Assembly (NCBI GenBank): GCA_003599415.1
Contig: QZKB01000047.1
Coordinates: forward strand, 1,832 to 65,831
Source of the DNA: Ignavibacteriales bacterium
GTDB lineage: Bacteria; Bacteroidota; Ignavibacteria; Ignavibacteriales; SURF-24
Length of the DNA: 64,000 bases
Direction: 5' to 3'
Positions 29,318 through 50,691 of the stretch are shown piece by piece. Below the pieces are notes generated by a model that was given only the letters and a program-made list of their open reading frames with translations, made no database searches and had not been told where the DNA came from. The position numbers and the translations under genes were made by a program. Within the stretch, counting starts at the first letter, position 1; each line of letters begins with the position of its first letter.

Positions 29318-29998
29318 TCATTTTCTGAACCTGTACCCGGCTTTTGGTGCTGTAATAATAAATCTTGGTTCGGAAGAATCATCTTCAATTTTTTTACGAA
29401 GCGAGAGTATATAGTTATCCACCGTTCTTGTTGTCGGAAAAGTGTCGTATCCCCAGATTTCATTCAGAAGTATTTCTCTTGTTACAACCTGGTCTTCATG
29501 CTCAACCATATACTTTAATACTCTGAACTCAGTAACCGAAAGGTCAACAAGCTTTTTGTTTTTAGTAACTTCCTGTTTTTTGAAATCAATATTTATTTTG
29601 CCGAAACTAAACTCACTTAATTCATTTTCCTGTTTCTCATTTCTTCGGATTACAGCTTTAATGCGAGCTAATAATTCCCTTGTACTAAATGGTTTTGTAA
29701 CATAATCATCAGCGCCTGTTTCCAGTCCAATTATCTTATCAATTTCATCCTTTTTGCTCGTAAGAATAATTATTGGTGTCTGAACTTTTTCAGCCCGCAA
29801 TAAACTGCAGACTTCCATCCCATTCTTCTTCGGCAGCATCAGATCAAGAATAATAATATCGTAGTTATTTTTTCTTGCAAGGTTAAATCCTTTTTCACCA
29901 TCTTCGGCTGTTGAAACAATAAAATGCTCATCCTTAAGGCTTAATTCCAATCCCTGAAGAATTGCAGGGTCATCTTCGATAACAAGAATTTTTTTCAT
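29318..29998 (-). CDS. OmpR/PhoB-family response regulator
   Basis: Receiver domain ('ILVIEDD', 'DIIILDLMLP', 'GLETGADDYVTKPFSTRELLARIKAVIRR', very close to E. coli PhoB in this segment). Winged-helix C-terminus ('TRTVDNYILSLRKK...GYRF'). Confidence 0.85.
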   Translation of the reverse strand: MKKILVIEDDPAILQGLELSLKDEHFIVSTAEDGEKGFNLARKNNYDIIILDLMLPKKNGMEVCSLLRAEKVQTPIIILTSKKDEIDKIIGLETGADDYVTKPFSTRELLARIKAVIRRNEKQENELSEFSFGKINIDFKKQEVTKNKKLVDLSVTEFRVLKYMVEHEDQVVTREILLNEIWGYDTFPTTRTVDNYILSLRKKIEDDSSEPRFIITAPKAGYRFRK

Positions 29999-30029: not shown

Positions 30030-32468
30030 TTATTTGTTTTTTATAACCGGGAAAAGCAGGCTAAAACTTGTGCCTTTATTTAATTCGCTTTCAATTTCAA
30101 TTCTACCGTGATGAAAATCCATTGCATGCTTTACAATAGCCAAACCTAAACCGGTGCCGGCAACTCTTCGTGCTTCTTTGTCTTCCGATCTGAAATACGG
30201 TTCAAAGATTTTTTCCTTATCGTTCTGGTTTATACCTATGCCCTTATCTTTTATTCTTACTAAAACGAAGCTGTCTGAGAAATCAGTCTCAATTGTAATT
30301 TCCTTTTCATCACGGGAATATTTCATTGCATTAGAAATAATATTCACAACACACTCTATAATACTATCTTTGTCCGCTGTTACAGGAAGTCTTTTGTCTA
30401 CTAAGTTTTTGTTAACGGTAAACTTCTGCATCTGGAGTTGGTATTCCATTATCCTGAGTGAGTCTTCAACAATAACATTAAGATCGGTTTCAGTGAACCG
30501 GTAGTTCTTTATTCCTCTTTCAATTTTTACAAGATCCAGAACATTATCAATCATTCTGCTTAGTCTGTCGCTTTCCCCTTGAATTATTTTAAGGTGGTTG
30601 GAAAACTTAGGATCTGTATTACATTCATTATTTTCGAGCCGTTCGGTAAAAATCCTGATTGATGTAAGAGGCGTCTTAAATTCATGAGAAACGCTTGAAA
30701 CAAAATAAGATTTTAACCTGTTAAGTTCTTCGAGTTTTTCTTTTTCAAGCCGGTCAAGTATTATTTTTTCCTGCAACTGAATTCTTTCAATTGCCTGTGC
30801 CGATTCGTTTGAAAGCTGATTTAACAAATCGAAGTCTTCTTTATAATACCTGTTACCGGATTTCTTCTTCCCCATCAATTCAACAGCTACTAATTCACCT
30901 AAGACATTAACCGGAAAGATGAGAGCAATATTTCTTTTATTAAGAGATTTAGCTTCAGATATCTGAACCGGAATCCCTGCTTCAACACTATTGAAAGTTG
31001 CTATGGGATTGATTCTCAATTCCTCAACACTTTTTGGAGTTAAGAATATTTTATGCCTGTCAAAACCGGGCAGGTTTATCTGTCTGATAATAGTAAGTGA
31101 ATTGTCGTGTTTATTAAAAGTGAATATTCCTATTTTTTCAGCTGGGATTAACTTGTTTACCTCAGTTATAATCCTGTCTGCCAGCTCTGAAATACTTGTT
31201 GAAGTTTGTATTGCTTTAAATGTATCATTTATTGCTTTTCTAAAATCATAATGAATCCTGAAAAACTTTTTATCTACAAAATCCTGTACATATTTTTTTA
31301 ACGGTTGAAATATCAGTGCAATCAAAACAGCAGCTAGGACAGACGAAAAAGCAGGACCAACACTTACAAGATATGTTATACCGACTATTATTGAAACATA
31401 TAATACAATCAAAAAGGAAATGACAATAACATAAACCACACCGCGATTGATAATAAGGTCAATATCGTATAAATGATATTTAACTATGGCAATTCCAAAG
31501 GTTACAGGGATAGCCGACATTAGGATTAAGATAAATTCTTCGGGAATTAAACCATTGGTTGTTATTGCCTGAGGAATTACCCACAGTACAATAAATGAAA
31601 CCGGACCCGCAATAAAACCAAGCAGCACCCATTTTAATTTCTTTTTATCAATGTCAGATCTGAGTTTTCTATAGGTTAAAATGAATATCAGTATTGCCAG
31701 AAGAACTGAAATGACTACAAAAATTCTTGTGTAGTTGAAATACCTGATATATACAAGCGAGTATGAAATATCATTTATGTTAGATAATGGAATAAAGACT
31801 ATGCTTAGAATAATTGTAAGAGCCAGGGAGAGCAAATAAAACGGAATAATGTAAATGCTCCTTAATCTGTTTGTAGGAAACACTAATGTAAAATGCAGAA
31901 AGAGAGCAGGGGCAAAGGTATAAGCCGCGTGAAAAACATATCTTGTCAAATGACCAAGCCATTCCGGTTTTACCTGGTGGTTCCCCCAAGTTGTCATTAT
32001 AATTGCCGCAGTACAGATAACCACGTTATGAAAAGTATAAGCCTGTTGAAGGTTTTCTGCTTTATATAAAACTATGACTGCAATAAGAAAAAACAAGACA
32101 CCCACAAGCAAAACAATAAGCAAATAAAAAGTTGTGTAAAATGGTATAAGGTTTACAAAGAAATCAAATTGTCTGTTATATCTTTCCACTGAGATTTTAA
32201 CCATATCACCAATATTTTTCCCATCCAAATAAATTTCAATATGTTCACGGGAGACAAACTTATAATTATCAATTGAAACTATTCTATCATCATGGTTCAA
32301 GGGAGAATTGAAGATTTGCTTGTCAATAAATAAATGACTATCTGATTCATAAATTGAAAATGGAAGATCAGCTTTCAGATAAATATGATAAATACCGGAA
32401 AGGCAAACCAGGAATAGAAAGATATCAAAAGCAAGTAATAATTTTTTTGTATTATATCTTATCTTCAT
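30030..32468 (-). CDS. Polytopic sensor histidine kinase (PDZ-like loop + multi-TM sensor + HisKA + HATPase)
   Basis: H-box 'SVSHEFKTPLTSI'. N-box 'IISNAMKYS'. G-boxes 'DKGIGI' and 'GTGLGLAIV'. The N-terminal 390 aa or so hold about 8 TM helices. Confidence 0.8.
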   Translation of the reverse strand: MKIRYNTKKLLLAFDIFLFLVCLSGIYHIYLKADLPFSIYESDSHLFIDKQIFNSPLNHDDRIVSIDNYKFVSREHIEIYLDGKNIGDMVKISVERYNRQFDFFVNLIPFYTTFYLLIVLLVGVLFFLIAVIVLYKAENLQQAYTFHNVVICTAAIIMTTWGNHQVKPEWLGHLTRYVFHAAYTFAPALFLHFTLVFPTNRLRSIYIIPFYLLSLALTIILSIVFIPLSNINDISYSLVYIRYFNYTRIFVVISVLLAILIFILTYRKLRSDIDKKKLKWVLLGFIAGPVSFIVLWVIPQAITTNGLIPEEFILILMSAIPVTFGIAIVKYHLYDIDLIINRGVVYVIVISFLIVLYVSIIVGITYLVSVGPAFSSVLAAVLIALIFQPLKKYVQDFVDKKFFRIHYDFRKAINDTFKAIQTSTSISELADRIITEVNKLIPAEKIGIFTFNKHDNSLTIIRQINLPGFDRHKIFLTPKSVEELRINPIATFNSVEAGIPVQISEAKSLNKRNIALIFPVNVLGELVAVELMGKKKSGNRYYKEDFDLLNQLSNESAQAIERIQLQEKIILDRLEKEKLEELNRLKSYFVSSVSHEFKTPLTSIRIFTERLENNECNTDPKFSNHLKIIQGESDRLSRMIDNVLDLVKIERGIKNYRFTETDLNVIVEDSLRIMEYQLQMQKFTVNKNLVDKRLPVTADKDSIIECVVNIISNAMKYSRDEKEITIETDFSDSFVLVRIKDKGIGINQNDKEKIFEPYFRSEDKEARRVAGTGLGLAIVKHAMDFHHGRIEIESELNKGTSFSLLFPVIKNK

Positions 32469-32563: not shown

Positions 32564-33592
32564 CTATAACTTTGTCATCATTCTTTGATATTCGTTTTTG
32601 TTATGTGTTACAGAAATAAGAAGCATGATTGGTGCTACAATTGTTGTAAACTGCATAAAGACCATACTCACAAGTTCATACCCCATCAATATTCTGGGTA
32701 TTAAACATAAAAACACATAAATAAGCGGACCAAATGTTATTCCTGATAATGCCCAGTAAATCTGCTTTTTATGTGTAACATCATTTATTGAAAGAGCAGA
32801 GTGCTCAAACTTTGCAATTGTAAGAATAATTACTATTACAAGAAAAACATCGGCAACAGTTGTATGAAAGTTCAGGTAATAAAGTTTATTAATATCGGCA
32901 TTAAAGAAAAATATTTTTACAAGTTGTATACAACTAATAACTATGAAGGTAATAGCAGCGCAGTAAACAGCAGAAAGGAAAAAAATATTCTTACTTTTTG
33001 TCTTGACCGGATAAGTGAAGCTTAAATGAAGGAATAGTGCTGGCACCATATATATACTAATTTCAAACAGTAAGAAAATTATAAAATTCAGGGACCTGCC
33101 GTAAGTAATAAGATCGCCCCAATCAAATATTATCATTATACCTGTGCACACTGAAAGCGCATGGATGATAAATGAAAAAGAATTATTCCTGTATTTAATA
33201 AGAATGAAAACACCGGTAAAAAAGAAAAACAAAGTAACAACCATCATTATTGCCAATTCATAGTTCTCGTATGTATTTACCAGAATAACTTTTGGCGTTG
33301 TAATTTCTGAATCAGCACCGATTGATTTAACATTTACCGTATCTTTGGCTTTATGACTCAACAAATAAAATTCAAGCTGCCCGTTCTTATTTATTTCCTT
33401 ACCGTCAAATTCAATTACCTGTTTTTTCCTGTAAATATTTTTAACATCAAAAGAAAAATTATTTATCATTGCCTGATATTCAGTAGGTAATGAGGCCTTT
33501 TCACTGAATAACCTAAGATTGAGAAAAGCTAGAATGAGCAGGCAAAAATCTATTGCCAAAAGAAAAACTATTATTTTCCTTTTTGAATTCAT
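32564..33592 (-). CDS. Kinase-less paralog of the sensor module of the adjacent histidine kinase
   Basis: Same layout as HK residues 1 to about 330: TM1, a soluble loop of about 90 aa, then multiple TM helices. Shared 'VPALFLHLSFTYP' versus 'APALFLHFTLVFP'. Its start overlaps the upstream stop by 4 nt. Confidence 0.55.
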   Translation of the reverse strand: MNSKRKIIVFLLAIDFCLLILAFLNLRLFSEKASLPTEYQAMINNFSFDVKNIYRKKQVIEFDGKEINKNGQLEFYLLSHKAKDTVNVKSIGADSEITTPKVILVNTYENYELAIMMVVTLFFFFTGVFILIKYRNNSFSFIIHALSVCTGIMIIFDWGDLITYGRSLNFIIFLLFEISIYMVPALFLHLSFTYPVKTKSKNIFFLSAVYCAAITFIVISCIQLVKIFFFNADINKLYYLNFHTTVADVFLVIVIILTIAKFEHSALSINDVTHKKQIYWALSGITFGPLIYVFLCLIPRILMGYELVSMVFMQFTTIVAPIMLLISVTHNKNEYQRMMTKL

Positions 33593-34563
33593 CTTTTAAC
33601 TCCATCTAAGGTTGTAAAAACTTGTAACCTATCCTTTGCTATTTCAATTGTACATGATAAGTAACCCGCCGGATCCCCGTCAAACTCAACTTCCGGATGA
33701 ATAATATTATTCCTGATTTCAATCTTTGAGGCATATTCTTTTGCAAGAAATGATGTATCAGAAAAATTTTCACCTGTATATAAAATCTTTATAAGTCTCG
33801 GAAGTTCTGATAACCTGATCTGGTTCGTTTTAAGAATATAAAACTGATCATCAGGAATTAAATCATCTTTATAAACTTTGATTCCTGAAGCAATGAATTT
33901 TGTAATTCCAACAGAAATATTAATTATATTTTTTACTTCTCTCTCTTCTGAATTTATTGAAATACTATAATCGGTTCCCCTGTAACTAAAAAGTATTTTT
34001 AAAAATGAAATGAACGTTCCAAGAAAATCTCCAAGATACCCTCTTATTCCCGAGCTTGCGCTTCTTGCTAATGAAGCGCCTAGCCCAATATTGGCGCAGC
34101 AAGCAAAGTATTTTGTCGTATCCGGATTCTTCTGAGTATTTCCATCATTCTTTTGAGGCCGGGTATTTAATCTTATCATACCAACGGGAATATTTATAAA
34201 GTGCTGAGCCATTATTACGTCTGCTGCCTGTAAAATATTGGTGGGAATATTATAGCTTTTACAAAAATCCGGACTAGTACCGGTATGAATAACTCCAAAC
34301 CTTGAAGAAGAAATTTTATTCCCGTTACCATCATAAAATCCATTAAGAACTTTATTAATTGTACCGTCACCTCCTACGGCAACAATGTTATTAATACCGT
34401 CTTTATTTGCTTGTACAGAAATGTTGTAGGCGTCATCAAAATTATTAATCTCCGTAAAATCAAAAGAGAAATTTTTATCTTGCAGGTATCTGCATACTCT
34501 CTTTGCAAGAGCACCCGACTTTCCACCCCTGGAATAAGGATTAATAATCAGAAGAGTTTTCAT
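33589..34563 (-). CDS. Diacylglycerol/lipid kinase family protein (YegS/BmrU-like)
   Basis: 'LLIINPYSRGGK' and 'VAVGGDGTINKVLNG' catalytic-domain motifs. Confidence 0.7.
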   Translation of the reverse strand: MKTLLIINPYSRGGKSGALAKRVCRYLQDKNFSFDFTEINNFDDAYNISVQANKDGINNIVAVGGDGTINKVLNGFYDGNGNKISSSRFGVIHTGTSPDFCKSYNIPTNILQAADVIMAQHFINIPVGMIRLNTRPQKNDGNTQKNPDTTKYFACCANIGLGASLARSASSGIRGYLGDFLGTFISFLKILFSYRGTDYSISINSEEREVKNIINISVGITKFIASGIKVYKDDLIPDDQFYILKTNQIRLSELPRLIKILYTGENFSDTSFLAKEYASKIEIRNNIIHPEVEFDGDPAGYLSCTIEIAKDRLQVFTTLDGVKR

Positions 34564-34565
34564 TC

Positions 34566-35738
34566 TTAGTTCCAGTGTTCAAAAAGATTTACAACTTTAT
34601 TAACCGAACTCTCTTTTATATTTGCTCCGGCAATCAATCTTATTCTGCCGTCATTTTTCCTTACCGAAGGATAAATAAACGGTGTTGAAAAAACGCCGTT
34701 ATCAAATAATTTTTTTGCAAAGTCTATTGTATCTTCCGAAGTACCAGCTATAATAGAGGTTATGGGAGCAGTACTGTCTGCTACCCGGAAACCGTTTCTT
34801 ACAAGAGCCTGCTTTAATAAATTTGAATACCTGAAAACTTTTGCTGCCCTTACATCATATTCTTCTTTGACTATATCAAGTGTTTTATTTATTCCCGCAA
34901 TAACAGACGGAGAAATGGCTGTTGAGTAAATTAGGTGCGAACTGCTGTAACTTAAATAATTAATCAACTCTTTACTTCCGCCAACTACCCCACAGTTATT
35001 CGCAAAGGCTTTTCCCAAAGAAGTTGTATAAATAACATCATCATCATCAATTCCCGAATGTGAAAGAATACCTTTCCCTTTTCTACCAATTACTCCAATT
35101 CCATGTGAATCATCCACAACAGGAATAGCATTGTATTTCCTGCACAACTCACAGATTTCCTTAAATGGAGCAATACTTCCTTCAGTTGAAAAAACAGATT
35201 CTGTTACCACAAAGATTTTTGGGCTGAGGTAATATTTTTCAAGCAGATACTCGAGCGACACAACATCATTATGACTGAAAGGTAATGATCTGCATCCGAC
35301 GCTTCTGATTCCCTGAATTAAAGAGGAATGAGCAAATCTATCGAATAAAATTAAATCTTCTTTTTTTGCAACAGCCTGGAAAATTCCATTATTAGCTTGG
35401 TAGCAGGATGGATATAAGATTACGCTCTCTACTCCGATAAAAGAAGCCAGCTTTCTTTGTGTATCTTCGAATAATTCTGTATAACCTCCTGCAATAGGAG
35501 TAGCGCACATTGAAATACCGTATTTTCTTATAGCATCAATATATACTTCCTTTATCCTGGAATCGTTGGACAACCCGAGATAATTATTTGTGGCAAGATT
35601 AACAACTTCTTTTCCGTTAACATAAACCGGATCGTTCTGTTCGCTGTTTATGGAAAGATAATAAGGATTGAATCCTTTTTTTAATACAGAATCGTCCAGC
35701 TGAAATCTATCTTTCAGACAAATACTTTCCGTTCTCAT
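34566..35738 (-). CDS. PLP-dependent alpha-oxoamine synthase (Spt/BioF/Kbl family)
   Basis: 'DDSHGIGVIGRKGKG' and PLP-lysine context 'TSLGKAF'. I prefer the ATG at 35738 (GAGGTG RBS, no overlap) over 35777. Confidence 0.75.
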   Translation of the reverse strand: MRTESICLKDRFQLDDSVLKKGFNPYYLSINSEQNDPVYVNGKEVVNLATNNYLGLSNDSRIKEVYIDAIRKYGISMCATPIAGGYTELFEDTQRKLASFIGVESVILYPSCYQANNGIFQAVAKKEDLILFDRFAHSSLIQGIRSVGCRSLPFSHNDVVSLEYLLEKYYLSPKIFVVTESVFSTEGSIAPFKEICELCRKYNAIPVVDDSHGIGVIGRKGKGILSHSGIDDDDVIYTTSLGKAFANNCGVVGGSKELINYLSYSSSHLIYSTAISPSVIAGINKTLDIVKEEYDVRAAKVFRYSNLLKQALVRNGFRVADSTAPITSIIAGTSEDTIDFAKKLFDNGVFSTPFIYPSVRKNDGRIRLIAGANIKESSVNKVVNLFEHWN

Positions 35739-35758
35739 AACGCACCTCTTAAAATTAA

Positions 35759-36967
35759 TTATCCTTTTGAATAACAAATTGTTGGTTTACCGGAATCGCA
35801 CATGAAAACACATTTATTACAATTGATGCACCTTGATTTATAATCTCCATCTGTTGCAGCAAGTTTTTCTGCAAAGTCAGGTTCACAAATAAAGGGTCTT
35901 GCCATACCTACTAAATCAGTCTGTTTATTATTTATTGCATTCTCTATTTCAAATTTAGATCTGAATCCGCCAACAGAAATAACAGGAATTGTTGTTAACT
36001 GTTTTGCCCTTTCAGCATAGCGAAGATTATAAGCAGGAGAAAAATCGATGAACCTGGAACTTATAAAGGTATTTATATAGAATTTCATCAAATATTTTTT
36101 AATGGGATTATCTGTCAGGAATATGGGATTGTGTTTAAATACTAACTCTAAATCCAGATCACCTCTGAAAATATTAATCGCATAATCCATTGTACCATAG
36201 CTTATTTCTATAGCATCAAAATGTTTTCCATCCAGGAAACTGATTAAGTGGTCGAACTGATCAGGGAAAAAATTACTGCCGAGATTATGATCTCCGCTTA
36301 TTTTAACAAGTACAGGAAACGAATTATCGCACCCGGCTTTTATACTGTCAAATATCTCTTCCAGAAGTTTTATACCGAGGTGAGTCTTTTTATCAATGCC
36401 ATATTTATTTTTTAGTACATTAGTTTCCGGGAGTAAAAACTGATGAAGCAAATAACCGTGAGCAGCATGTATCTGAACGCCGTCAAAACCGGCTTCCTTT
36501 GCCAGGTAAGCTGCGTTTGAAAACTGCATGATTACTTCTTCAATTTCCGAATCATTTATTAAGGATGGCTTCTGTCTGAAATAGACAGACGATTTCTTGG
36601 TGCTCGAAATTATTTTACTGTTTGTTACCTTTTTAATTGTTTGCCTACCCGAATGGGCAATCTGCAATATTATAGGGACATTATGTTTATGTACTTCATC
36701 TGTAATTTTTCTGTACGAAAGAATTTTTTTACTTGTATCTATTCCTGCCTGTGCCCGCTGCATTGCTCTGCCATTGCCTGAAACAAATGCAAACCCGGTT
36801 ATTATCATTCCAACTTGTTTTTCCGCGAGTGATTTATATAATGCAATGTATTTAGAATTAGGATTTCCATTTTCATCAGCAGCTCCCTCAAATGTAGCAG
36901 ACCGAACAATCCTGTTTCTAAGGGTCATTCCTCCAATTTTATAACTGTTAAATATTATTGAATCCAT
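35759..36967 (-). CDS. Old-yellow-enzyme-type NADH:flavin oxidoreductase with C-terminal Cys cluster
   Basis: 'LRNRIVRSATFEG', 'IILQIAHSGRQ', 'GFDGVQIHAAHGYLLHQFL'. C-terminal 'CINCNKCVFMCDSG'. Confidence 0.7.
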   Translation of the reverse strand: MDSIIFNSYKIGGMTLRNRIVRSATFEGAADENGNPNSKYIALYKSLAEKQVGMIITGFAFVSGNGRAMQRAQAGIDTSKKILSYRKITDEVHKHNVPIILQIAHSGRQTIKKVTNSKIISSTKKSSVYFRQKPSLINDSEIEEVIMQFSNAAYLAKEAGFDGVQIHAAHGYLLHQFLLPETNVLKNKYGIDKKTHLGIKLLEEIFDSIKAGCDNSFPVLVKISGDHNLGSNFFPDQFDHLISFLDGKHFDAIEISYGTMDYAINIFRGDLDLELVFKHNPIFLTDNPIKKYLMKFYINTFISSRFIDFSPAYNLRYAERAKQLTTIPVISVGGFRSKFEIENAINNKQTDLVGMARPFICEPDFAEKLAATDGDYKSRCINCNKCVFMCDSGKPTICYSKG

Positions 36968-36970
36968 TAC

Positions 36971-37978
36971 CTAACCCTTCACATTAACATGGAAATTAAA
37001 AAGGAATCCAATAAAGAAATAGGATAACAGAAACAGAACAACTCCAAATGCAGGATTGAAAATTGCAATTATTGCCGATTCAGTACAGGCACATGCCCTG
37101 AAATTCATGGAAAGTGAAAAATAAGTTTTACTACCAATCGGATTTTCATAGTAAAGGTAGCCTGTCCATAACTGCATTCCTGTTGCAATTAATGCCAGCT
37201 CCATAAAAATATTATTTAACTGGTATGCCCATACTTCAAAACCGAAATAAAATATCATGAAAATAAATATCGGAAGAAATGAAGCAAACAGAGCCAGTTT
37301 CTTCGAACGCTCAATACCCAACTTAACTATTAATGTATTTTTACCGGCAAGTTTATCTCCTTCATAATCCTTAAAGTAAGTATACAAGGTCATTAACCCG
37401 TTTAATAAAGAAAGGTAGAGGATCATTAAAATGTTTCCGACAGAAATTATTGAAGCGTCTGTTTTTCCTGAGGCCAAGAATCCAAACACAGCACAAATAG
37501 AAATCATAATACCAAAAATTATATTCCCCCAGATTCCGTAACCTTTGGCATATTCATAAATAAGATTAAGTATTATTCCTGCAAAAAGTGGTATTACAGC
37601 AACAGGTTCCAGATAAAACCATGTAACCAGAATTGCACAGGTCATAAGCAGCGTAGATAAAAGTATTGCATACTTAGGATTCAACTCTCCTGTAACCATT
37701 GGTCGTTCAGGGGCATTTATTCTATCTTCGTTTATCCCAAGGTAGTCGTTATAAATCTGATTAATGCCCCACGCAAAAAATAGAATTATCATTATTACAA
37801 CTAACTTTGTAAACGAGGTTGGCTGAAAAATTAGAGAATGTTTTTCGGTTGAGTATGCAAGATACTGGTAATAAGAAATACCGATCAAACCGGCTATTCC
37901 TGTAATGAAGGAATAATATAGCCTCATTGATTTTATGTACGCTCTTATAAATGTTTCAATTTTTTTTATATGAATCAT
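36971..37978 (-). CDS. UbiA-superfamily prenyltransferase (DGGGPS/ChlG-like motif)
   Basis: About 8-9 TM helices. First Asp-rich motif 'NDYLGINEDRINAPERP'. Second motif 'KDYEGDKLAG'. Confidence 0.75.
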   Translation of the reverse strand: MIHIKKIETFIRAYIKSMRLYYSFITGIAGLIGISYYQYLAYSTEKHSLIFQPTSFTKLVVIMIILFFAWGINQIYNDYLGINEDRINAPERPMVTGELNPKYAILLSTLLMTCAILVTWFYLEPVAVIPLFAGIILNLIYEYAKGYGIWGNIIFGIMISICAVFGFLASGKTDASIISVGNILMILYLSLLNGLMTLYTYFKDYEGDKLAGKNTLIVKLGIERSKKLALFASFLPIFIFMIFYFGFEVWAYQLNNIFMELALIATGMQLWTGYLYYENPIGSKTYFSLSMNFRACACTESAIIAIFNPAFGVVLFLLSYFFIGFLFNFHVNVKG

Positions 37979-37990
37979 ATTTATTCTTCT

Positions 37991-39283
37991 TTATAACTTT
38001 ATTACCCGTTTATAAAAATCTGCTTCTTCACCTCTATTCCAGCCGTTAATTACCTGTTGTGATAATTCTTTTGAAAGAGGCAGAACAGTAATATTATTTT
38101 CCTTAACAATTGCTGCTATGCGGGCAGAGCAAATCTCGCAAAGCCAGCTATCGCCGGATTTTCGGAAAGAATCCCTCATTCGAGCATAAATCAAATCAAA
38201 GTCCTCATCCTTAATATTTCCGAAAGAAATATTTAAGAATTCACAAGGCTGGACATCTCCTTTTGCATTAATGTAAAACCGATCTGTACCACCGGCAGTG
38301 CAACCGAACATATCGCTTCTTTCATCTTCAATCTGTGCATATATAAAAGGATAATTCCTGAATTCTTTCCTGTTATTGTACTGGTGTACTTTTTCTTCTA
38401 TATGAATAAGATCCTCTCTTGAAAAGTTGCCTATGTCAGCACCAAGCCATCCACCTGATGGCTTAGGTTTAATTAGCTGAATTAATGTTATCCCTAATTT
38501 TTGTGCAAGCTCAATAATTTTTTGAAAGTTACCATTATAAAAATCTTCTTTAAGAATGCAGGTATTTGCTGTAACTTCCAACCCGGCTTCATGACATAAG
38601 ATTATTCCATTAGATAAATTATCCCAGGCTTTCTCATTTTTCATGAACTGATTTATTCTTTCGGGATATGGAGAGTGAAGAGAGAACATAATACCATATA
38701 CACCGGCATTTTTAAGTTGCAGAAGCTTTTCCCTGCTCATACCGTCCCCGGTTGAATTAATCCAGATTTCACCGACCTTGATTGCATCGCACAATTTTAA
38801 AAGTTTATCAAACACAAGGAATGGTTCACCGCCTTCAATATTAAAAAATGAGACTCCCCTTTTATCAAGTCTTGCTGCAATATCGCAAAGAAGATTTATA
38901 TCCACATCTTTACCTTTATCCATCTTCTGATAACAATGTTCACAATTATAACGACAGGCAGAAGTAACTGATAGAAGAACTGAAATACATGGCATACTTT
39001 CTTCCGAAACCAAAACTTTCTTGCTGGCTTTAAAAAATGCCTTTGACGGAAACGCCGGTACATACAGATTCATTTTAATGTATTTCCCAGATTTGACATA
39101 CTTGTTCATTTTCATTTTAGAAAGGAAGAAAAGTAATCGTTTGAGAAACCGGATAAAATTTCTTGCGGGTATTTTACCTGTAAGCATTTCAAGCAGGAAA
39201 TGGAAAAAGACATATATTTTAATATAGTTATCATATATCATCTTCTCCCGACCAATTAAATATTTTATATTACCCATAACCAA
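37991..39283 (-). CDS. Radical SAM enzyme
   Basis: 'SACRYNCEHCY' CxxxCxxC motif. 'GGEPF'. The C-terminal Cys-containing region ('GCTAGG...QPCEF', 'CEICSARI') suggests an auxiliary cluster. Confidence 0.75.
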   Translation of the reverse strand: MVMGNIKYLIGREKMIYDNYIKIYVFFHFLLEMLTGKIPARNFIRFLKRLLFFLSKMKMNKYVKSGKYIKMNLYVPAFPSKAFFKASKKVLVSEESMPCISVLLSVTSACRYNCEHCYQKMDKGKDVDINLLCDIAARLDKRGVSFFNIEGGEPFLVFDKLLKLCDAIKVGEIWINSTGDGMSREKLLQLKNAGVYGIMFSLHSPYPERINQFMKNEKAWDNLSNGIILCHEAGLEVTANTCILKEDFYNGNFQKIIELAQKLGITLIQLIKPKPSGGWLGADIGNFSREDLIHIEEKVHQYNNRKEFRNYPFIYAQIEDERSDMFGCTAGGTDRFYINAKGDVQPCEFLNISFGNIKDEDFDLIYARMRDSFRKSGDSWLCEICSARIAAIVKENNITVLPLSKELSQQVINGWNRGEEADFYKRVIKL

Positions 39284-39289
39284 ATCCTC

Positions 39290-40324
39290 TTATAGATATT
39301 TATTTTCTTTGTACCAAAGGATAGTTTTTTCTATACTTTCTTCCAGAGAATAATCCGGAGTAAAATCCAGAAGAGCCTTTAGCTTTTCAGAAGAGTACTC
39401 AATATTATCATAAAATATATTTACTCTGCCTCGTGAAATTGGCGGCGCATTTTTACTTCTGGATATTGTGTACATAAGTTCCGTTAAAAATGCAGGCGGA
39501 TAAATAATTGATTTAGGAATCCGATGAGGTATTTTAATGCCTGCTTTTTCGCAAAACAGGTTGAACAAATTAAATTGATTCGGAGCCTCGGGAGCAACAG
39601 CAAGAATTTTATTTACTCCCTGTAATTCTTTTTTATATGACAGATAATAAATTTTTCCAAGATCTCTTGCATATATGGTATGAAATTTATTTTTCTTTGA
39701 ACCCGGCAGAAAATGCAAACCACCTTTTACGAGTTTAATGAAATCGTAAAATCCTGAATGAAATTCTCTTTCTCCATATACCCAGGCAGGTTCAAGTATT
39801 GTTAAATTGAATTGATTCAGCTCAGCAAACTTAATTGCCTGAACATTTGCTTCAGCCTTTGTATCCCTGTAAAAATTTAAAGCCGAAGGAAAGATCTTAT
39901 CCATAAAATATTTGTAATGGGAACTGTATGGATAGTTCTCGTCCTTTACAATTGAAGAGGATTCTTCACCGTAGCATGAAACTGATCCGGTTATGATTAA
40001 ATTATTAATACTGTTTGCATAGGCAGCTTTCAAAACATTTGATGTACCTTCAACATTCACTTTACGGAAATCTTCATACGTACCCCAGTCTCCTACTTTT
40101 GCTGCAGTATGAATAACAAAATCGATTCCCGAATTAAAAACAGAGATCAATTTTTGCAGATCGGTTACATCCCCGTAAACAATATCTGCACCCAACATTT
40201 TCAAAAAACCAGTATCACTTCTTTCTCTCACCATACAAAATGGACTTATTCCTTTTGAATGGAAATATTCGGTAATATGACTTCCTATCAATCCATTTGC
40301 TCCGGTGACTAAAATCCTTCCCAT
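39290..40324 (-). CDS. NAD-dependent epimerase/dehydratase-family (extended SDR) enzyme
   Basis: 'ILVTGANGLIGSH' Rossmann motif. 'YRDTKAEA' YxxxK. Confidence 0.75.
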   Translation of the reverse strand: MGRILVTGANGLIGSHITEYFHSKGISPFCMVRERSDTGFLKMLGADIVYGDVTDLQKLISVFNSGIDFVIHTAAKVGDWGTYEDFRKVNVEGTSNVLKAAYANSINNLIITGSVSCYGEESSSIVKDENYPYSSHYKYFMDKIFPSALNFYRDTKAEANVQAIKFAELNQFNLTILEPAWVYGEREFHSGFYDFIKLVKGGLHFLPGSKKNKFHTIYARDLGKIYYLSYKKELQGVNKILAVAPEAPNQFNLFNLFCEKAGIKIPHRIPKSIIYPPAFLTELMYTISRSKNAPPISRGRVNIFYDNIEYSSEKLKALLDFTPDYSLEESIEKTILWYKENKYL

Positions 40325-41341
40325 CTAACTAATCCTACGAGAGATTAAATATTCAGTTAAGCATTTGATATACTCATAATGATCCTTGAAATCGCGGGCA
40401 GCTATATTGAAATCATTTAAGAGAAGCTGTTTATTCTTAATTTCTAAAATTTTTGATTTTTCTTTTGTAATCTTACCGATACAGAAGAGTTTAATTCCAA
40501 TGTCTTCAGCATCTTTAATCAATATTTTTTCGTCTCTCTGATTAATTGTGAAAAGCAATTCATACTCACCGCATTCGCCAAATAGCAGACATTCTTTGGG
40601 AAGACCAATTTTGTTAATCCAATCAATGCCAGGTTTAAAATAAGGTAGATTGTTAACAACAAAACCGCACTCATTTATTTCTGAGATGATATCCAATGAT
40701 TTATACAGTCCGTCGCTTGTATCAATACATGAAGTAGCATAGCTTGAAACAAGTTCAGCCTCCCTGAAACGTAGCGGAAAAATAATCTTATGTTTTTCGA
40801 AAAGCTCATCACCCTCACCAGAATTAATTTCATATAATGAGGAAGCGGCTTCGAAATTCCCTCTGCCAATCTCCCCGGTTAAAAAAATAAGATCTCCGTC
40901 GTTTGCACCTTTTCTTGTTACAATTTTGTTTGCCTCACCTATAGCAATTCCTGTAAAATTCCAATTTTCACAATAACCAAAATCACCTCCGATAAAGGCA
41001 ATTCCGCATTTTTCCAGTACATATGCAATTCCTTTTGAAAGAGAATCGATAAAATCAATACTCCAGGAGTGTTCGCAGTTAAGACTATTACAAAAGAATA
41101 AAGGTTTTCCTCCACATGCAAAAATATCACTCAGTGTACAAGTGGCAAGGTTCATACCCAGAATATAAGGATCATTTAACCTGAAGTGATCTTCATTAGA
41201 ATATGTATCGACAGTAATCAGATAATCTTTGTTGCCCAACTTAATAATTTCCGAATCTGACTGAAAGAATTGATTTCTATGTCTATCAGACTTCCTGAAA
41301 TTTCCAAGTATGGTTTTTATTATTTCATATTCACTAATCAT
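40325..41341 (-). CDS. AIR-synthase-related / ThiL-like ATP-utilising protein (PurM superfamily)
   Basis: 'DSEIIKLG...LITVDTYSNEDHF', 'NLATCTLSDIFACGGKP', 'FIGGDFG', 'GDLIFLTGEIGRG' follow the ThiL/PurM pattern. Confidence 0.6.
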   Translation of the reverse strand: MISEYEIIKTILGNFRKSDRHRNQFFQSDSEIIKLGNKDYLITVDTYSNEDHFRLNDPYILGMNLATCTLSDIFACGGKPLFFCNSLNCEHSWSIDFIDSLSKGIAYVLEKCGIAFIGGDFGYCENWNFTGIAIGEANKIVTRKGANDGDLIFLTGEIGRGNFEAASSLYEINSGEGDELFEKHKIIFPLRFREAELVSSYATSCIDTSDGLYKSLDIISEINECGFVVNNLPYFKPGIDWINKIGLPKECLLFGECGEYELLFTINQRDEKILIKDAEDIGIKLFCIGKITKEKSKILEIKNKQLLLNDFNIAARDFKDHYEYIKCLTEYLISRRIS

Positions 41342-41395: not shown

Positions 41396-41423
41396 TGTCA
41401 TAATAATGTCATAAAAATGTAAA
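41396..41423 (-). promoter_or_regulatory. Pho-box-like array of 11-bp-phased hexamers upstream of the biosynthetic operon
   Basis: Plus strand TGTCAT-aataa-TGTCAT-aaaaa-TGTAAA. In gene sense this reads TTTACA-ttttt-ATGACA-ttatt-ATGACA, 55-82 nt upstream of the start at 41341. Confidence 0.5.
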
Positions 41424-41585: not shown

Positions 41586-41604
41586 TAGATAAAAATTAAA
41601 TAAT

Positions 41605-41640
41605 AGCCGTGGATAGTGAAACAACTGTCCACGGCTTTTT
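41605..41640 (+). terminator. Attenuator hairpin 1
   Basis: AGCCGTGGA-(14 nt)-TCCACGGCT followed by TTTTT. Confidence 0.7.
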
Positions 41641-41646
41641 CATTTT

Positions 41647-41678
41647 AAAGCCGTGAGAATGCAAATCACGGCTTTTTT
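41647..41678 (+). terminator. Attenuator hairpin 2 (intrinsic terminator)
   Basis: AAAGCCGTGA-gaatgcaaa-TCACGGCTTTTTT. Its 5' arm is complementary to the 3' arm of hairpin 1. Confidence 0.75.
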
Positions 41679-41754
41679 GTTTGCTGGATATTACACTTAA
41701 TAAATAACAAATGATTAGAGAATCAAAAAATTAAAAAACAATTTAGGAGTTACC

Positions 41755-43119
41755 ATGCGAGACAACAAATTTCACATTCACGTAAATGATATGCCGAACA
41801 AATGGTATAATATTCTTCCGGATCTTCCTGTACCATTAGCACCACCAATTCATCCCGGGACAAAAAAACCGATTAATCCTGAAGACCTTGCAGCAATTTT
41901 TCCAATGGAATTAATCCAACAGGAAATGAGTCCTGATAGGTTTATTGAAATTCCGGATGAAGTACTGGATGTTCTTTCCTTAAGCAGGCCAACACCAGTC
42001 ATCAGAGCTTACAGGTTAGAGAAAGCGCTCGATACTCCTGCCAAAATTTATTTCAAGTATGAAGGTGCAAATTCATCCGGAAGTCACAAATTAAACACGT
42101 CAATTGCACAGGCTTACTATAATAAAAAAGCCGGCATTAAAAGGATTGCAACTGAGACAGGTGCTGGTCAATGGGGCAGTGCGTTGGCAATGGCTTGTAA
42201 TCATTTTAATATGGAATGCCAGGTATTTATGGTAAAAGTAAGTTTTCAGCAGAAACCTTACAGGAAATCATTGATGCAGTTATTTGGCGCTGAAGTAATT
42301 CCAAGTCCGTCCAATCTTACAAACTCCGGAAGGAATGTTTTGGCACAATATCCGGATTCTCCCGGTTCACTCGGCATTGCAATTAGTGAAGCAGTTGAAG
42401 TTGCTGCACAGCGTGATGACACAAACTATTCACTTGGGAGTGTGTTGAATCATGTCTTACTGCACCAGACAATTATTGGTGAAGAAGCAAGATTGCAGAT
42501 GGAGATGGCCGGAGATTACCCGGATATAGTTATTGCTTGTGTTGGTGGCGGAAGTAATTTTGGTGGAATCGCATTCCCATTCCTAAGGGACAAACTTACC
42601 GGAGATAAAAAAGAACTTGAAGTTATTGCAGTGGAACCGGCTTCCTGTCCTACATTGACCCGAGGTAAATTCACATATGATTTTGGAGACGAAGCAGGAT
42701 TTACACCTTTACTTAAAATGTACACGCTCGGGCATAATTTCATTCCGGCAAAAATTCATTCAGGCGGATTAAGGTACCATGGAATGTCACCAATTGTATC
42801 TCACTTAAAGAGTCTTGATTTAATTAAGGCTGAAGCTTATTATCAGAAGGAAGTATTTGAAGCGGCAGTTCTATTTGCCCGTGAAGAAGGAATTGTTCCT
42901 GCACCTGAAAGTTCACATGCGATTAAATCTGCTATTGAACAGGCTAATAAATGCAAAGAAAGCGGAGAATCAAAGACTATCTTATTCAACCTTTCAGGAC
43001 ATGGATTTTTAGACCTTGCTGCATATGATGCATATCTTAGTGATCACCTTGAAGATCATGAAATGACTGAAGAAGAAATTGCAGAAAATGTAAAAGATCT
43101 GCCTGAAGTATTAGTCTAA
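41755..43119 (+). CDS. trpB: TrpB2-type tryptophan synthase beta-like PLP enzyme
   Basis: 454 aa (long TrpB2 form). '[14 protein letters not shown]' PLP-lysine motif, 'VGGGSNFGG', 'GGLRYHGM'. AGGAG RBS. Confidence 0.8.
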
Positions 43120-50681: not shown

Positions 50682-50691
50682 CCAGGCATTA

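Follow-up and report, generated by a model that had tools for sequence, protein, structure and literature searches.

We found that seven genes on the minus strand of an Ignavibacteria contig, at positions 33589-41341 of the window (the whole 64,000-nucleotide stretch analysed here), form an operon that is a conserved unit and not a chance neighbourhood, the gene set being kept together in anaerobic bacteria of at least 15 phylum-level groups. The seven genes are a reduced Ignavibacterial form of an ancestral nine-gene operon, because most versions also have an acyl carrier protein (ACP) and a ketosynthase (KS). Tentatively, and with confidence a little short of even, we propose that this reduced, regulator-controlled operon makes a membrane-resident hybrid acyl/amino-alcohol/isoprenoid lipid.

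Organization of the operon

The open reading frame listing and Pfam agreed with the sequence-only reading in the identity and close packing of the genes, which follow one another from 5' to 3' with intergenic gaps of 0, 12, 12, 3, 20 and 2 nt. They encode a ThiL/PurM-superfamily ATP enzyme (40325-41341, 338 aa; AIRS/AIRS_C), an extended SDR (39290-40324, 344 aa; Epimerase/3Beta_HSD), a radical SAM enzyme (37991-39277, 428 aa; Radical_SAM and SPASM), a UbiA-superfamily intramembrane prenyltransferase (36971-37978, 335 aa; UbiA), an OYE-type FMN ene-reductase (35759-36967, 402 aa; Oxidored_FMN), a PLP-dependent alpha-oxoamine synthase (AOS; 34566-35738, 390 aa; Aminotran_1_2) and a DgkB/BmrU-type soluble lipid kinase (33589-34563, 324 aa; DAGK_cat and YegS_C). 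When the proteins were assigned to subfamilies by HMM, a check that the earlier reading had proposed, none of the seven reached any curated NCBIfam cut-off; all are divergent, unassigned members of their families. No description of the cluster was found in the literature searched, and the earlier remark that the combination belongs to no nameable pathway held, in that no curated family or paper found accounts for the set.

Conservation and gene order

The sample consisted of 71 loci found with the UbiA protein, and comparison of the window proteins with these loci by tblastn showed that the operon genes travel together. By family clustering, UbiA was present in 68 loci, OYE in 59, AOS and the lipid kinase in 52 each, the radical SAM enzyme in 51, the ThiL-like enzyme in 49, the SDR in 45, KS in 33 and ACP in 28. 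All seven families of the window occurred in 36 other fetched loci, spanning 7.4-10.4 kb (15 kb in one), as expected of the single uncharacterised lipid-type unit suggested earlier, and all nine families, including ACP and KS, occurred together in 23. OYE, missing from four otherwise complete loci, was encoded directly upstream of AOS or ACP-AOS wherever present. Carriers belong to the Ignavibacteriota, Bacteroidota, Bacillota, Omnitrophota, Cloacimonadota, Spirochaetota, PVC bacteria, Desulfovibrio and others, and the cultured ones include Desulfosporosinus spp., Mangrovibacterium lignilyticum and Acetivibrio alkalicellulosi. The set is thus co-conserved across genomes, in three gene orders, two of which are related by circular permutation of two blocks, UbiA-OYE-ACP-AOS-lipid kinase and ThiL-like-KS-SDR-radical SAM; the lipid kinase and ThiL-like genes are adjacent in orders A and C.

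The ACP and the FabF-like KS, identified by Pfam and NCBIfam in the versions of most other lineages, retain the DS motif and the Cys-His-His triad, respectively; the Ignavibacteria and PVC-type versions lack both. The absence of an ACP had been noted earlier, correctly for this window but not for the cluster elsewhere. The Mangrovibacterium cluster has in addition an AMP-ligase and a carbamoyltransferase. Where likeness to long-chain-base chemistry is concerned, the ACP of the relatives and the AMP-ligase of Mangrovibacterium are additions to the enzymes encoded in the window.

Properties of the encoded enzymes

The AOS, whose 390-aa start equals that of RJP70981.1, fell below the cut-offs of BioF, Kbl, SPT, CqsA and ALAS. 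Its family profile scored best against the SPT of Sphingobacterium multivorum (390 bits), followed by KBL (378), BioF (293) and CqsA (234), and scores this close for SPT and KBL do not single out an amino acid or a chain length. The top NCBIfam matches of the SDR, all far under cut-off, were HpnA and the 2-alkyl-3-oxoalkanoate reductase OleD, suggesting that it may be the keto-reductase of the AOS product. The likeness of AOS, SDR and lipid kinase to long-chain-base enzymes, pointed out earlier, holds at the family level. The lipid kinase is closer to the diacylglycerol kinase DgkB than to the sphingosine kinase SphK1, its family profile scoring 117 bits with the former and only 34 bits with the latter. 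The OYE has the HAAHGY motif, CINCNKCVFMCDSGKPTIC and a C-terminal cysteine cluster (CxxCxxC..C..C), and the PDB entries nearest to it in sequence are YqjM-class ene-reductases and 2,4-dienoyl-CoA reductase.

For the ThiL-like enzyme, the closest PDB sequences are those of ThiL (E 4e-17), and it scored 145.9 bits against TIGR01379 thiL, with a cut-off of 184; a TPP riboswitch was looked for upstream of the gene and none was found. To our knowledge, ThiL is the sole PurM-family member that turns a phosphate monoester into a diphosphate, and the ThiL-like enzyme may be a kinase that takes a lipid or prenyl monophosphate to the diphosphate.

The radical SAM enzyme, with its 428-aa start confirmed by exact look-up, carries the CxxxCxxC motif as CRYNCEHC, a C-terminal domain of the SPASM/twitch type and an N-terminal helical extension of about 95 residues. 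Foldseek neighbours of its AF2 model (pLDDT 88) were SkfB, SuiB, PqqE, BlsE and MoaA, mostly peptide and cofactor enzymes that give no lipid-specific hint. Two relatives have natural UbiA::Radical_SAM fusion proteins (P0430 and P0451); in P0430 the radical SAM half shares 35% identity with the enzyme of the window (E 5e-88), and the fusion gene is followed at the same locus by those for kinase, AIRS, OYE, AOS and SDR.

The UbiA protein belongs to a sharply delimited clade (40 representatives at E<=1e-30) with the motif NDxxGxxEDxxNAPxRP, or NDxxGxxED in short form, which is invariant in 66 sequences. The window protein contains NDYLGINEDRINAPERP, which had been likened to the DGGGP-synthase/chlorophyll-synthase branch. 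By sequence and by fold (AF2 model, pLDDT 91), the closest solved structure is the M. jannaschii DGGGP synthase (DGGGPS; E 1e-9 and E 2e-8, respectively). The first Asp-rich motif lacks its second Asp, the residue being G81 here and Gly in all 66 clade members. Its counterpart D66 is required for DGGGPS activity, and donor binding may therefore differ from that of the model enzyme. UbiA enzymes group by acceptor and not by donor, and ring systems are the established prenylation target of most of them (PMC9385802). A polyprenyl synthase was not found in the cluster or the window.

Two-component system and repeat arrays

As described earlier, the gene string runs without a strand change into three minus-strand genes. 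The first encodes a kinase-less polytopic membrane protein (32564-33592, 342 aa), the start of which overlaps the lipid-kinase stop by 4 nt, and which by BLASTP is paralogous to the membrane sensor module of the second gene product (E 2e-14, residues 123-328 against 126-328). This second product is a polytopic histidine kinase (30030-32468, 812 aa) with a PDZ-like loop, about 8 TM segments, HisKA and HATPase_c, and is followed by an OmpR/PhoB-family response regulator assigned by Pfam (29318-29998, 226 aa). The sensor paralogue follows the lipid-kinase gene in seven loci and in L075, all from Ignavibacteria, and histidine-kinase orthologues adjoin the cluster in L003 and L004 only; the full two-component system stands beside the cluster in three loci and the sensor paralogue in about eight. 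The proposed two-component coupling is real beside the window operon but confined to Ignavibacteria, Firmicute versions carrying an XRE-type regulator in its place.

The Pho-box-like array noted earlier also proved real. On the minus strand at 41396-41423, 55 nt upstream of the first ATG of the operon, a pattern scan of the window located TTTACA-N5-ATGACA-N5-ATGACA with an 11-bp period (array 1); the window contained four matches to this pattern, where 0.31 would be expected. In L002, L003, L004, L006, L007 and L008 an equivalent array precedes the orthologue of the first gene, and in these six other Ignavibacteria loci the di-hexamer pattern is almost unique to the pre-operon position. Array 2 (29259-29297, minus strand; CTTACA, TTTACA, ATGACA and TTGACA, 11-bp period) lies upstream of a minus-strand gene for an outer-membrane fusion protein of an endonuclease/exonuclease/phosphatase (EEP) domain and an Omp85 barrel (27030-29159, 709 aa; Pfam and NCBIfam Omp85_fam; start confirmed by look-up). 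Orthologues of this gene stand beside the two-component system and the cluster in L003 and L004, with a matching array upstream in L004. Array 3 (26952-26979, minus strand; TTTACA, TTGATA and TTGACA, two mismatches to the pattern) is located 58 nt upstream of a minus-strand gene for a 5'-nucleotidase/metallophosphoesterase with a T9SS sorting tail (24759-26894, 711 aa; Pfam and NCBIfam). From site architecture and position only, we infer control by the adjacent OmpR/PhoB-type regulator, which in Ignavibacteria probably switches the operon on via the 11-bp-periodic direct repeats, and the EEP-Omp85 and nucleotidase genes probably share its regulon. The regulator fell below the cut-offs of YycF, PhoB, MtrA and OmpR and the kinase below that of PhoR; the earlier suggestion of phosphate stress therefore draws only on the companions of the array, which also precedes these two phosphoesterase genes.

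Proposed product and alternatives

In the pathway we favour, an acyl chain would be carried on ACP, the cluster's own and KS-extended where present and the housekeeping ACP in Ignavibacteria, and AOS would condense it with a small amino acid, forming a 2-amino-3-ketoalkane. The Fe-S ene-reductase (OYE) would saturate a carbon-carbon double bond in conjugation with that carbonyl or thioester, the OleD/HpnA-like SDR would reduce the ketone to an amino alcohol, and the DgkB-type kinase would phosphorylate a hydroxyl, with the ThiL-like enzyme adding a second phosphate to the amino-alcohol lipid or to a prenyl monophosphate. The UbiA enzyme would attach an isoprenoid chain to the phosphorylated backbone, much as DGGGPS does with a lipid-alcohol phosphate, and the membrane-tethered radical SAM enzyme would modify the UbiA substrate or product at an unactivated carbon. 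The step given to the ThiL-like enzyme is the weakest link, because UbiA has no obvious use for a non-allylic lipid diphosphate. In addition, two ATP-consuming phosphorylations fit poorly with induction by phosphate scarcity, unless the phosphates are leaving groups.

An unlikely alternative is that the product is a prenylated heterocycle, such as a lipid-soluble cofactor, pigment or quinone-like compound. KS and ACP would provide a beta-ketoacyl-ACP, from which AOS with serine or glycine would yield a pyrrolinone after cyclisation; SDR and OYE would convert this into an alkyl-(hydroxymethyl)pyrrole, the two kinases would form an ionisable diphosphate, and UbiA would use or prenylate the ring. 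PigH and RedL perform such an AOS-type condensation with serine or glycine in prodiginine biosynthesis, and ThiD and ThiL convert the hydroxymethyl of hydroxymethylpyrimidine to a diphosphate. We know of no other setting for the trio of KS, ACP and AOS, which co-occurs in 23-33 loci, than pyrrole-forming prodiginine pathways; however, the KS is FabF-like (274 bits) and just remotely PigJ-like (74 bits), and the Ignavibacteria and PVC-type versions do without KS and ACP. Every enzyme would have a role, including the two consecutive kinases, and the distribution is limited to anaerobes, whereas the cluster has no oxidase, methyltransferase or second ring-forming enzyme. Although the preference of most UbiA enzymes for rings agrees with this route, and an unusual diphosphate substrate could lie behind the deviant first Asp-rich motif, the UbiA protein is nearest to DGGGPS and not to aromatic prenyltransferases, and the lipid kinase is nearest to diacylglycerol kinases.

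Rather improbably, the operon may make a hydrophobic signal, an elaborated relative of the CAI-1/LAI-1-type amino- or hydroxy-ketones, that is sensed by the histidine kinase and its paralogue, with the regulator activating the operon in positive feedback, along with the exported phosphoesterases. CqsA-type autoinducer synthases are relatives of the AOS, but it scores 231 bits against their cut-off of 428. Translation of the sensor paralogue is coupled to that of the last biosynthetic gene, and the genes for kinase and regulator come next in the same orientation, no convincing terminator having been found; nevertheless, only in Ignavibacteria does the cluster have sensor genes beside it, and in other phyla more than 40 loci either lack them or carry the XRE regulator instead. 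An operator common to biosynthesis and exoenzyme genes, as seen before the operon and the two exoenzyme genes here, is typical of quorum-sensing regulons, yet for a signal the number of enzymes, seven to nine with an intramembrane prenyltransferase among them, is large.

Very unlikely is a polyprenyl-phosphate-linked envelope precursor, raised earlier by analogy to decaprenyl-phospho-arabinose, the logic of which combines a UbiA-type phosphoribosyltransferase with an epimerase-type SDR: both superfamilies are present by Pfam, but the mycobacterial-type membrane phosphoribosyltransferase 8j8j was only the 15th-ranked fold match of UbiA (E 3e-3, 11% identity), the top SDR matches are lipid ketoreductases such as OleD, AOS, ACP and KS would have no role, and the conserved families include no DprE1-type FAD oxidase, glycosyltransferase or sugar-activating enzyme. 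Least probable of all is that UbiA is a genuine DGGGPS and the cluster makes archaeal-type diether lipids, since, despite the JGI auto-annotation of the family as 'geranylgeranylglycerol-phosphate geranylgeranyltransferase' and the closest solved structure, UbiA is far under the NCBIfam DGGGPS cut-offs (74.7 against 296 bits and 82.1 against 269 bits), shares about 20% identity with the M. jannaschii enzyme in the fold search and has Gly in place of the catalytic Asp throughout its clade, and neither GGGPS nor G1P dehydrogenase was found in the cluster, the window or the conserved neighbours.

The acyl/amino-alcohol/isoprenoid lipid that we favour would, in Ignavibacteria, be made under a regulator whose gene lies downstream beside those for a polytopic kinase and for a copy of the kinase's sensor module that lacks the kinase part, and it is probably a lipid not previously described.

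Organization of the operon

The seven minus-strand open reading frames that the sequence-only reading had placed at 33589-41341 were all found, each with the Pfam domain claimed for it (open reading frame listing and Pfam). In order, they encode a ThiL-like enzyme (AIRS/AIRS_C), an epimerase-type extended SDR, a radical SAM enzyme (rSAM; Radical_SAM plus SPASM, minus strand, 37991-39277), a UbiA protein (UbiA), an FMN ene-reductase (OYE; Oxidored_FMN), an alpha-oxoamine synthase (AOS; Aminotran_1_2, minus strand, 34566-35738) and a lipid kinase (DAGK_cat plus YegS_C), the starts of the rSAM and AOS genes being those of the database entries. With database-supported starts, the successive gaps between the seven genes are 0, 12, 12, 3, 20 and 2 nt. 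The motifs read from the sequence were also present, namely CxxxCxxC in the rSAM enzyme, a C-terminal cysteine cluster (CxxCxxC..C..C) in the flavoenzyme, which in addition carries an HAAHGY motif, and both NDYLGINEDRINAPERP and KDYEGDKLAGKNT in the UbiA protein. An exact-sequence look-up identified the window proteins as entries RJP70974-RJP71011; GC content was ~0.30-0.39 across the whole window, with the operon not distinct from its surroundings. None of the ten proteins of the operon and two-component genes scored above the curated cut-off of an NCBIfam equivalog, and no Rfam element, TPP riboswitch or other, was detected upstream of the operon.

Conservation and gene order

Scanning the UbiA protein against one genome per species yielded 71 loci, distributed among Ignavibacteriota, Bacteroidota, Bacillota (many Desulfosporosinus species and other Clostridia), Omnitrophota, Cloacimonadota, Marinisomatota-type MAGs, Auribacterota, Spirochaetota, Latescibacterota, Riflebacteria, Armatimonadota, Victivallales/PVC, Bdellovibrionota, Desulfovibrio and Atribacterota; judged by the names and sources of these loci, the carriers are anaerobes. 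Searches with the window proteins (tblastn) and all-against-all clustering of the open reading frames in the 71 loci showed that the seven families travel together, so that the grouping proposed from the sequence is borne out across phyla: all seven lie within 7.4-10.4 kb (15 kb in one case) in 36 loci as well as in the window, many of the loci not showing the full set being cut by contig ends. Nine genes, the seven plus an acyl carrier protein (ACP) and a ketosynthase (KS), were present in 23 loci; the cluster of Desulfosporosinus fructosivorans (L016, about 10001-19635) is of this nine-gene type.

Three gene orders were found: order A, UbiA-OYE-ACP-AOS-kinase-ThiL-KS-SDR-rSAM, in some cases preceded by a gene for an XRE-type regulator; order B, in Ignavibacteria, ThiL-SDR-rSAM-UbiA-OYE-AOS-kinase; and order C, in PVC bacteria and Desulfovibrio, UbiA-rSAM-kinase-ThiL-OYE-AOS-SDR. 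Order B is a circular permutation of order A, built from the same two blocks. That the seven families have been kept together through rearrangement across phyla is strong evidence of a single function; chance adjacency is ruled out by this co-conservation, and the seven genes are nearly certainly a conserved, uncharacterised lipid-type biosynthetic unit.

In 28 loci an ACP of ~80 aa is encoded immediately upstream of the AOS. The KS, FabF-like with its Cys-His-His triad preserved, is encoded between the ThiL-like enzyme and the SDR. Both are dispensable in two of the three architectures; a Bacteroidales MAG with order B has kept them. Since most versions hold ACP and KS, the window, in which no ACP was found, has a reduced form of the cluster. 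The OYE gene is absent from four otherwise complete loci and elsewhere always adjoins the AOS gene or the ACP-AOS pair.

Several individual loci departed from these patterns. In Mangrovibacterium lignilyticum (cluster at L072, 10001-20225), which has an AMP-dependent ligase gene upstream, a 734-aa NodU/CmcH-type carbamoyltransferase (L072, 11014-13218) occupies the KS position, right after the PurM-family gene; this pairing recalls HypE/HypF. The product of this lineage may be carbamoylated, with the carbamoyl group possibly dehydrated. In Acetivibrio alkalicellulosi (L073, 1-693 and 6328-14629), ~5.6 kb containing an AAA-ATPase/PDDEXK gene, an ECF sigma factor gene and genes of unknown type part the UbiA gene from the remaining cluster, which suggests that the operon was interrupted by an insertion. 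In Riflebacteria and relatives (L046, L048, L051, L063 and L064), the UbiA-OYE pair either stands alone or is oriented divergently from more weakly similar homologues of the remaining genes, and may represent a variant or decaying form. Locus L001 (JBLNEL010000080.1), labelled a Bacillota MAG, has cluster genes 62-74% identical to those of the window, including the Ignavibacteria-specific sensor paralogue, and its contig is probably mis-binned or mislabelled.

The UbiA clade and its radical SAM partner

The UbiA protein belongs to the multi-helix UbiA superfamily, with 96.9 bits against Pfam UbiA (cut-off, 34.2) and an AF2 model (pLDDT 91) that gave TM-scores up to 0.77 against solved homologues. 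Its second Asp-rich motif is intact and its first is modified, and the third motif, KDYEGDKxxGKxT, is of the DGGGP synthase (DGGGPS)/chlorophyll synthase type. The top NCBIfam models were prenyltransferase PRK12884 (82 bits; cut-off, 269) and DGGGPS PRK12882 (75 bits; cut-off, 296), and archaeal DGGGPS (PDB 6M31/7BPU) was the closest solved relative by both sequence and fold, the best match being the Methanocaldococcus jannaschii enzyme (sequence, E 1e-9; fold, E 2e-8). This clade, which JGI annotates as DGGGP synthase, is sharply bounded, with 40 representatives at E<=1e-30, 136 at <=1e-10 and 1329 at <=1e-3 in a full-library search.

The likeness to DGGGPS has limits, however. Identity is only ~20%, the cluster UbiA has NDxxGxxED in place of NDxxDxxxD, and it is encoded in a different operon and fused to rSAM in some relatives. 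As a DGGGP synthase the protein was rejected, with 74.7 bits against a cut-off of 296 and 54.7 against 353, and without the canonical N-x3-D-x3-D motif. GGGPS and G1P dehydrogenase genes were absent from the cluster, the 64-kb window and the conserved neighbours. The DGGGPS of Cloacimonetes was defined by co-location with GGGPS (PMC7852524), and the lack of such co-location here sets the cluster UbiA apart from it. The signature NQ-x-x-ND-x-LG-x-x-ED-x-x-NAP-x-RP occurred in all 66 UbiA sequences covering the motif, with an invariant Gly (G81 in the window protein) at the position equivalent to D66 of DGGGPS, whose alanine mutant is nearly inactive (PMC9385802). Here the more distant UbiA::rSAM fusion proteins carry D or N, so that the Gly of the main clade is derived.

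Two of the representatives from the full-library search are such natural fusions, 721-739 aa in length. In one of them, P0430, the rSAM half shares 35% identity with the window enzyme (E 5e-88), and at its locus the fusion gene is followed by kinase, AIRS, OYE, AOS and SDR genes. Fusion argues that both enzymes act on one membrane-embedded molecule and suggests that intramembrane prenyltransferase and radical enzyme operate as a single machine, a partnership for which our searches found no precedent.

For the rSAM enzyme itself, the top NCBIfam models were NirJ2 (80 bits; cut-off, 500) and GeoRSP (76 bits; cut-off, 400), and the fold neighbours of its AF2 model (pLDDT 88) were SkfB, SuiB, PqqE, BlsE, MoaA, viperin, DesII and anSME, giving no lipid-specific assignment. 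The model has an N-terminal extension of ~95 residues, made up of a hairpin and a pair of long helices, one of which is hydrophobic on inspection of its residues; it is not obviously an RRE. With gaps of only 0-20 nt, the window operon has no room for a RiPP precursor peptide gene. Two lipid-related assignments were rejected: no tetraether synthase structure was among the top 50 fold matches, and similarity to HpnH was negligible (24 bits).

Family affinities of the other enzymes

The ThiL-like enzyme resembles ThiL in its best family match (145.9 bits; the closest PDB entry is also ThiL, E 4e-17) and in keeping the PurM-superfamily motifs, but its score is below the equivalog cut-off of 184 bits, no TPP riboswitch accompanies it, and it is always in the lipid-type cluster and not among thiamine genes. 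The SDR matched HpnA (99 bits; cut-off, 368) and OleD-type 2-alkyl-3-oxoalkanoate reductase (97; cut-off, 580). The kinase matched the lipid kinase model PRK13057 (90; cut-off, 274) and the YegS/Rv2252/BmrU-family model TIGR00147 (83; cut-off, 119), and its profile scored 117 bits with DgkB versus 34 with human SphK1 in the PDB. For the flavoenzyme, the top models were the mycofactocin-system FadH/OYE oxidoreductase (177; cut-off, 793) and NamA (165; cut-off, 431), and the closest PDB entries were YqjM-class ene-reductases and 2,4-dienoyl-CoA reductase.

All 22 AOS family members tested fell among generic BioF/Kbl/SPT matches, the top models for the window enzyme being BioF (298 bits; cut-off, 426), Kbl (291; cut-off, 460) and CFB-type SPT (266; cut-off, 640). 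A profile of the 22 sequences scored 390 bits against Sphingobacterium multivorum SPT, 378 against KBL, 293 against BioF and 234 against CqsA, the SPT and KBL scores being too nearly equal to predict the amino acid substrate. Specific assignments were rejected one after another: SPT (NF047600, NF047599 and NF047603; 266, 199 and 148 bits versus cut-offs of 640, 500 and 670), BioF, bio genes being in no locus, a Kbl/Tdh pair (a second Kbl model gave 247 versus 493 bits, and the SDR matched HpnA/OleD, not threonine dehydrogenase), and a CqsA/LqsA autoinducer system (231 versus 428 bits, with a polytopic kinase adjoining only in the window, L003 and L004).

Regulation in Ignavibacteria and neighbouring genes

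Direct repeats with an 11-bp period are the typical geometry of OmpR/PhoB-family sites. Arrays of TGACA-type hexamers with this period were found at 41396-41423 (three hexamers, TTTACA, ATGACA and ATGACA), at 29259-29297 (four hexamers) and at 26952-26979, the latter two on the operon's strand; the pattern had 4 matches in 64 kb versus 0.31 expected, and its complement, TGTCAT, resembles a Pho box. The array at 26952-26979 is 58 nt upstream of a gene for a T9SS-exported 5'-nucleotidase, and that at 29259-29297 is upstream of a gene (27030-29159, minus strand) for a 709-aa protein with an endonuclease/exonuclease/phosphatase domain fused to an Omp85-type barrel (EEP-Omp85). Upstream of the orthologous first gene in the related loci L002, L003, L004, L006, L007 and L008 there were arrays of two or more xTGACA hexamers with this period, and the di-hexamer pattern was found almost nowhere else in them. 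A sigma-70 promoter scan was uninformative (65 sites versus 67 expected).

The lipid kinase gene is overlapped by 4 nt by the gene for a 342-aa polytopic protein, a paralogue (E 2e-14) of the membrane module of the 812-aa polytopic histidine kinase, after which comes the 226-aa OmpR/PhoB-type regulator. This sensor paralogue follows the lipid kinase gene in about eight Ignavibacteria loci, and in L003 and L004 the kinase, regulator and EEP-Omp85 genes adjoin the cluster in different arrangements. The coupling to a two-component system claimed earlier is thus well supported in Ignavibacteria by the arrays and by these neighbours, but is not general, since order A has an XRE-type regulator (22 loci).

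A link to phosphate stress, also suggested from the sequence, survives in part. The wiring resembles a Pho regulon in the PhoR/PnpS-like catalytic core of the kinase, the type of the regulator and a putative operator with 11-bp spacing before candidate co-regulated exported phosphoesterases. Unlike PhoR, however, the window sensor takes the form of a polytopic module that contains a PDZ-like loop and is accompanied by a free paralogue; the regulator was rejected as PhoB (217 versus 296 bits; Bacteroidota PhoB model, 183 versus 270), as was the kinase as PhoR (185 versus 334), and no pst or phoU genes were found nearby. With two exported phosphoesterase genes preceded by the array, a phosphate-scavenging regulon is plausible, envelope stress or product sensing being the alternatives. 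Together, the putative operator, polytopic kinase, free sensor paralogue and exported phosphoesterases would constitute a small dissectable regulon.

The layout of the EEP-Omp85 protein, which had no PDB sequence match, recalls type Vd autotransporters, but with a phosphoesterase as passenger. An EEP gene adjacent to the Bacteroidales cluster L074, at first sight a recurrence of the EEP-Omp85 partner, was rejected as such, being an unrelated ExoIII-type nuclease by its translation motifs. Between the operon and a divergent TrpB2-like gene (41755-43119, plus strand), two adjacent GCCGTG/CACGGC hairpins lie at 41600-41700, one of them followed by a T-run on the plus strand ~110 nt upstream of the TrpB-like gene; they could be an attenuator or bidirectional terminator. 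Their only Rfam hit was below threshold and at chance level (E 0.57). Further along the plus strand are an unusual 331-aa response regulator with a receiver domain and an AsnC/Lrp-type ligand-binding domain (43442-44437) and, at 44637-52530, NuoE-like and NuoF-like genes, a gene for a 1251-aa fusion (2Fe-2S, GltD-like pyridine-nucleotide-disulphide oxidoreductase, Nqo3-type ferredoxin and molybdopterin oxidoreductase domains), a histidine kinase gene and a sigma-54 activator gene, which together resemble an NAD(P)H-linked formate-dehydrogenase-type complex provided with regulators of its own. A run of genes at 75-14442 (plus strand) and 55434-58508 (minus strand) encodes large proteins that have T9SS C-terminal sorting domains and carry DUF3160, BNR/Sortilin repeats or CotH kinase and lamin-tail domains; a 1614-aa open reading frame (7594-12438) also lies within this run.

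Proposed pathway and alternatives

Among known systems, the bacterial sphingolipid pathway comes nearest to the first half of the proposed pathway, the archaeal DGGGPS step to UbiA, and the prodiginine modules to the KS/ACP/AOS trio. The cluster belongs to none of the three, whose defining features were tested and found lacking; it is a lipid-type biosynthetic operon in which known enzyme families are brought together in an unprecedented combination. Full-text literature searches found no description of it, a provisional result, subscription literature being outside their coverage; the lipocone paper treats a different UbiA neighbourhood.

Sphingolipid synthesis in Caulobacter and Bacteroidota uses Spt, a dedicated ACP with an acyl-ACP synthetase, a CerR-type SDR, the ceramide synthase bCerS and a DAGK-fold ceramide kinase. 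The cluster is similar in having an SPT/KBL-group AOS, with Sphingobacterium SPT as best profile match, an epimerase-family SDR adjacent to it in the pathway, a DAGK-fold lipid kinase and, in Mangrovibacterium, an AMP-ligase; the ACP encoded just before the AOS in 28 loci may serve that enzyme. It differs in its kinase, which is DgkB-like and not SphK-like, and in adding UbiA, rSAM, OYE, ThiL-like enzyme and KS, none of which has a role in ceramide synthesis; no ceramide-synthase-type N-acyltransferase was found in the 71 loci, where only the nine families and the XRE regulator recurred.

From the co-conservation, the ACP and KS partners, the UbiA-rSAM fusion and the family affinities, we propose a hybrid acyl/amino-alcohol/isoprenoid lipid made in two halves, a tentative scheme to which we give a nearly even chance and of which the first half (AOS, OYE and SDR) is better supported than the second. 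The AOS would condense an acyl-ACP with a small amino acid, the ene-reductase would remove a conjugated C=C, and the SDR would reduce the ketone to an amino alcohol, in parallel with long-chain-base synthesis; the carbamoyltransferase of Mangrovibacterium is consistent with a free OH or NH2 on the product. The DgkB-type kinase would then phosphorylate a hydroxyl. ThiL is the PurM-family member that converts a phosphate monoester into a diphosphate, and the ThiL-like enzyme could plausibly add a second phosphate, either to this lipid or to a prenyl monophosphate; geranylgeraniol and geranylgeranyl-phosphate kinase activities are known biochemically (PMC9385802). UbiA would attach an isoprenoid chain to this phosphorylated backbone, much as DGGGPS acts on GGGP. 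Since UbiA enzymes group by acceptor (PMC9385802), this analogy leads us to expect a lipid alcohol carrying a phosphate as acceptor. Finally, the rSAM partner would modify an unactivated carbon.

The prodiginine modules PigH/PigJ and RedL/RedK combine KS, ACP, AOS and a reductase in a single pathway, as does the cluster, and suggest a different product, a prenylated heterocycle. A beta-ketoacyl-ACP and Ser or Gly would give a pyrrolinone and then an alkyl-hydroxymethylpyrrole, which the two kinases would convert into a diphosphate for UbiA. Such a route gives every enzyme a role and accounts for the occurrence of KS, ACP and AOS together, but we consider it unlikely: the cluster KS is FabF-like with weak similarity to PigJ, KS and ACP are separate proteins and not parts of multidomain enzymes, both are lost in two architectures, and the UbiA and kinase are DGGGPS-like and DgkB-like. 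A membrane signal sensed by the adjacent kinase would match the wiring in Ignavibacteria but is at odds with the distribution of the cluster, and is improbable. A pathway like that of decaprenyl-phospho-arabinose, which the sequence-only reading had offered as an alternative, is very improbable, as the corresponding fold match (8j8j) ranked 15 with 11% identity and no FAD oxidase was among the conserved families, and a true archaeal diether pathway is scarcely credible given the DGGGPS scores, first motif and missing partner genes.

Significance

The cluster makes up a large biosynthetic module with clear limits and no known product. Word-indexed searches matched ~1,000 90%-identity protein clusters for UbiA, ~930 for rSAM and ~600 for the ThiL-like enzyme, counts that come from different E-value cut-offs and that for UbiA (E<=1e-5) may include other UbiA-family proteins. 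As there are cultured carriers (Desulfosporosinus spp., M. lignilyticum and A. alkalicellulosi), the question of the product is directly testable. Should the ThiL-like and DgkB-like enzymes together make a lipid or prenyl diphosphate, they would put genes to kinase activities that in prokaryotes are known from biochemistry alone.

DGGGPS homologues of unknown use have been reported across FCB-group bacteria (PMC6431249; PMC7852524), and the operon offers a concrete candidate for an alternative role of part of them, presuming that they belong to this clade. It is possible, if rather doubtful, that the cluster is the pathway for an unrecognised class of bacterial membrane lipid, made by anaerobes of at least 15 phylum-level groups, in which a fatty-acid-derived amino-alcohol phosphate replaces glycerol phosphate as backbone, an isoprenoid chain is attached by a DGGGPS-like enzyme and rSAM modifies the lipid further. 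In that case a considerable fraction of the homologues cited as 'bacterial DGGGP synthase' in the lipid-divide debate would be part of this unrelated pathway, and its product could be the source of the orphan mixed isoprenoid/alkyl lipids in anoxic sediments.
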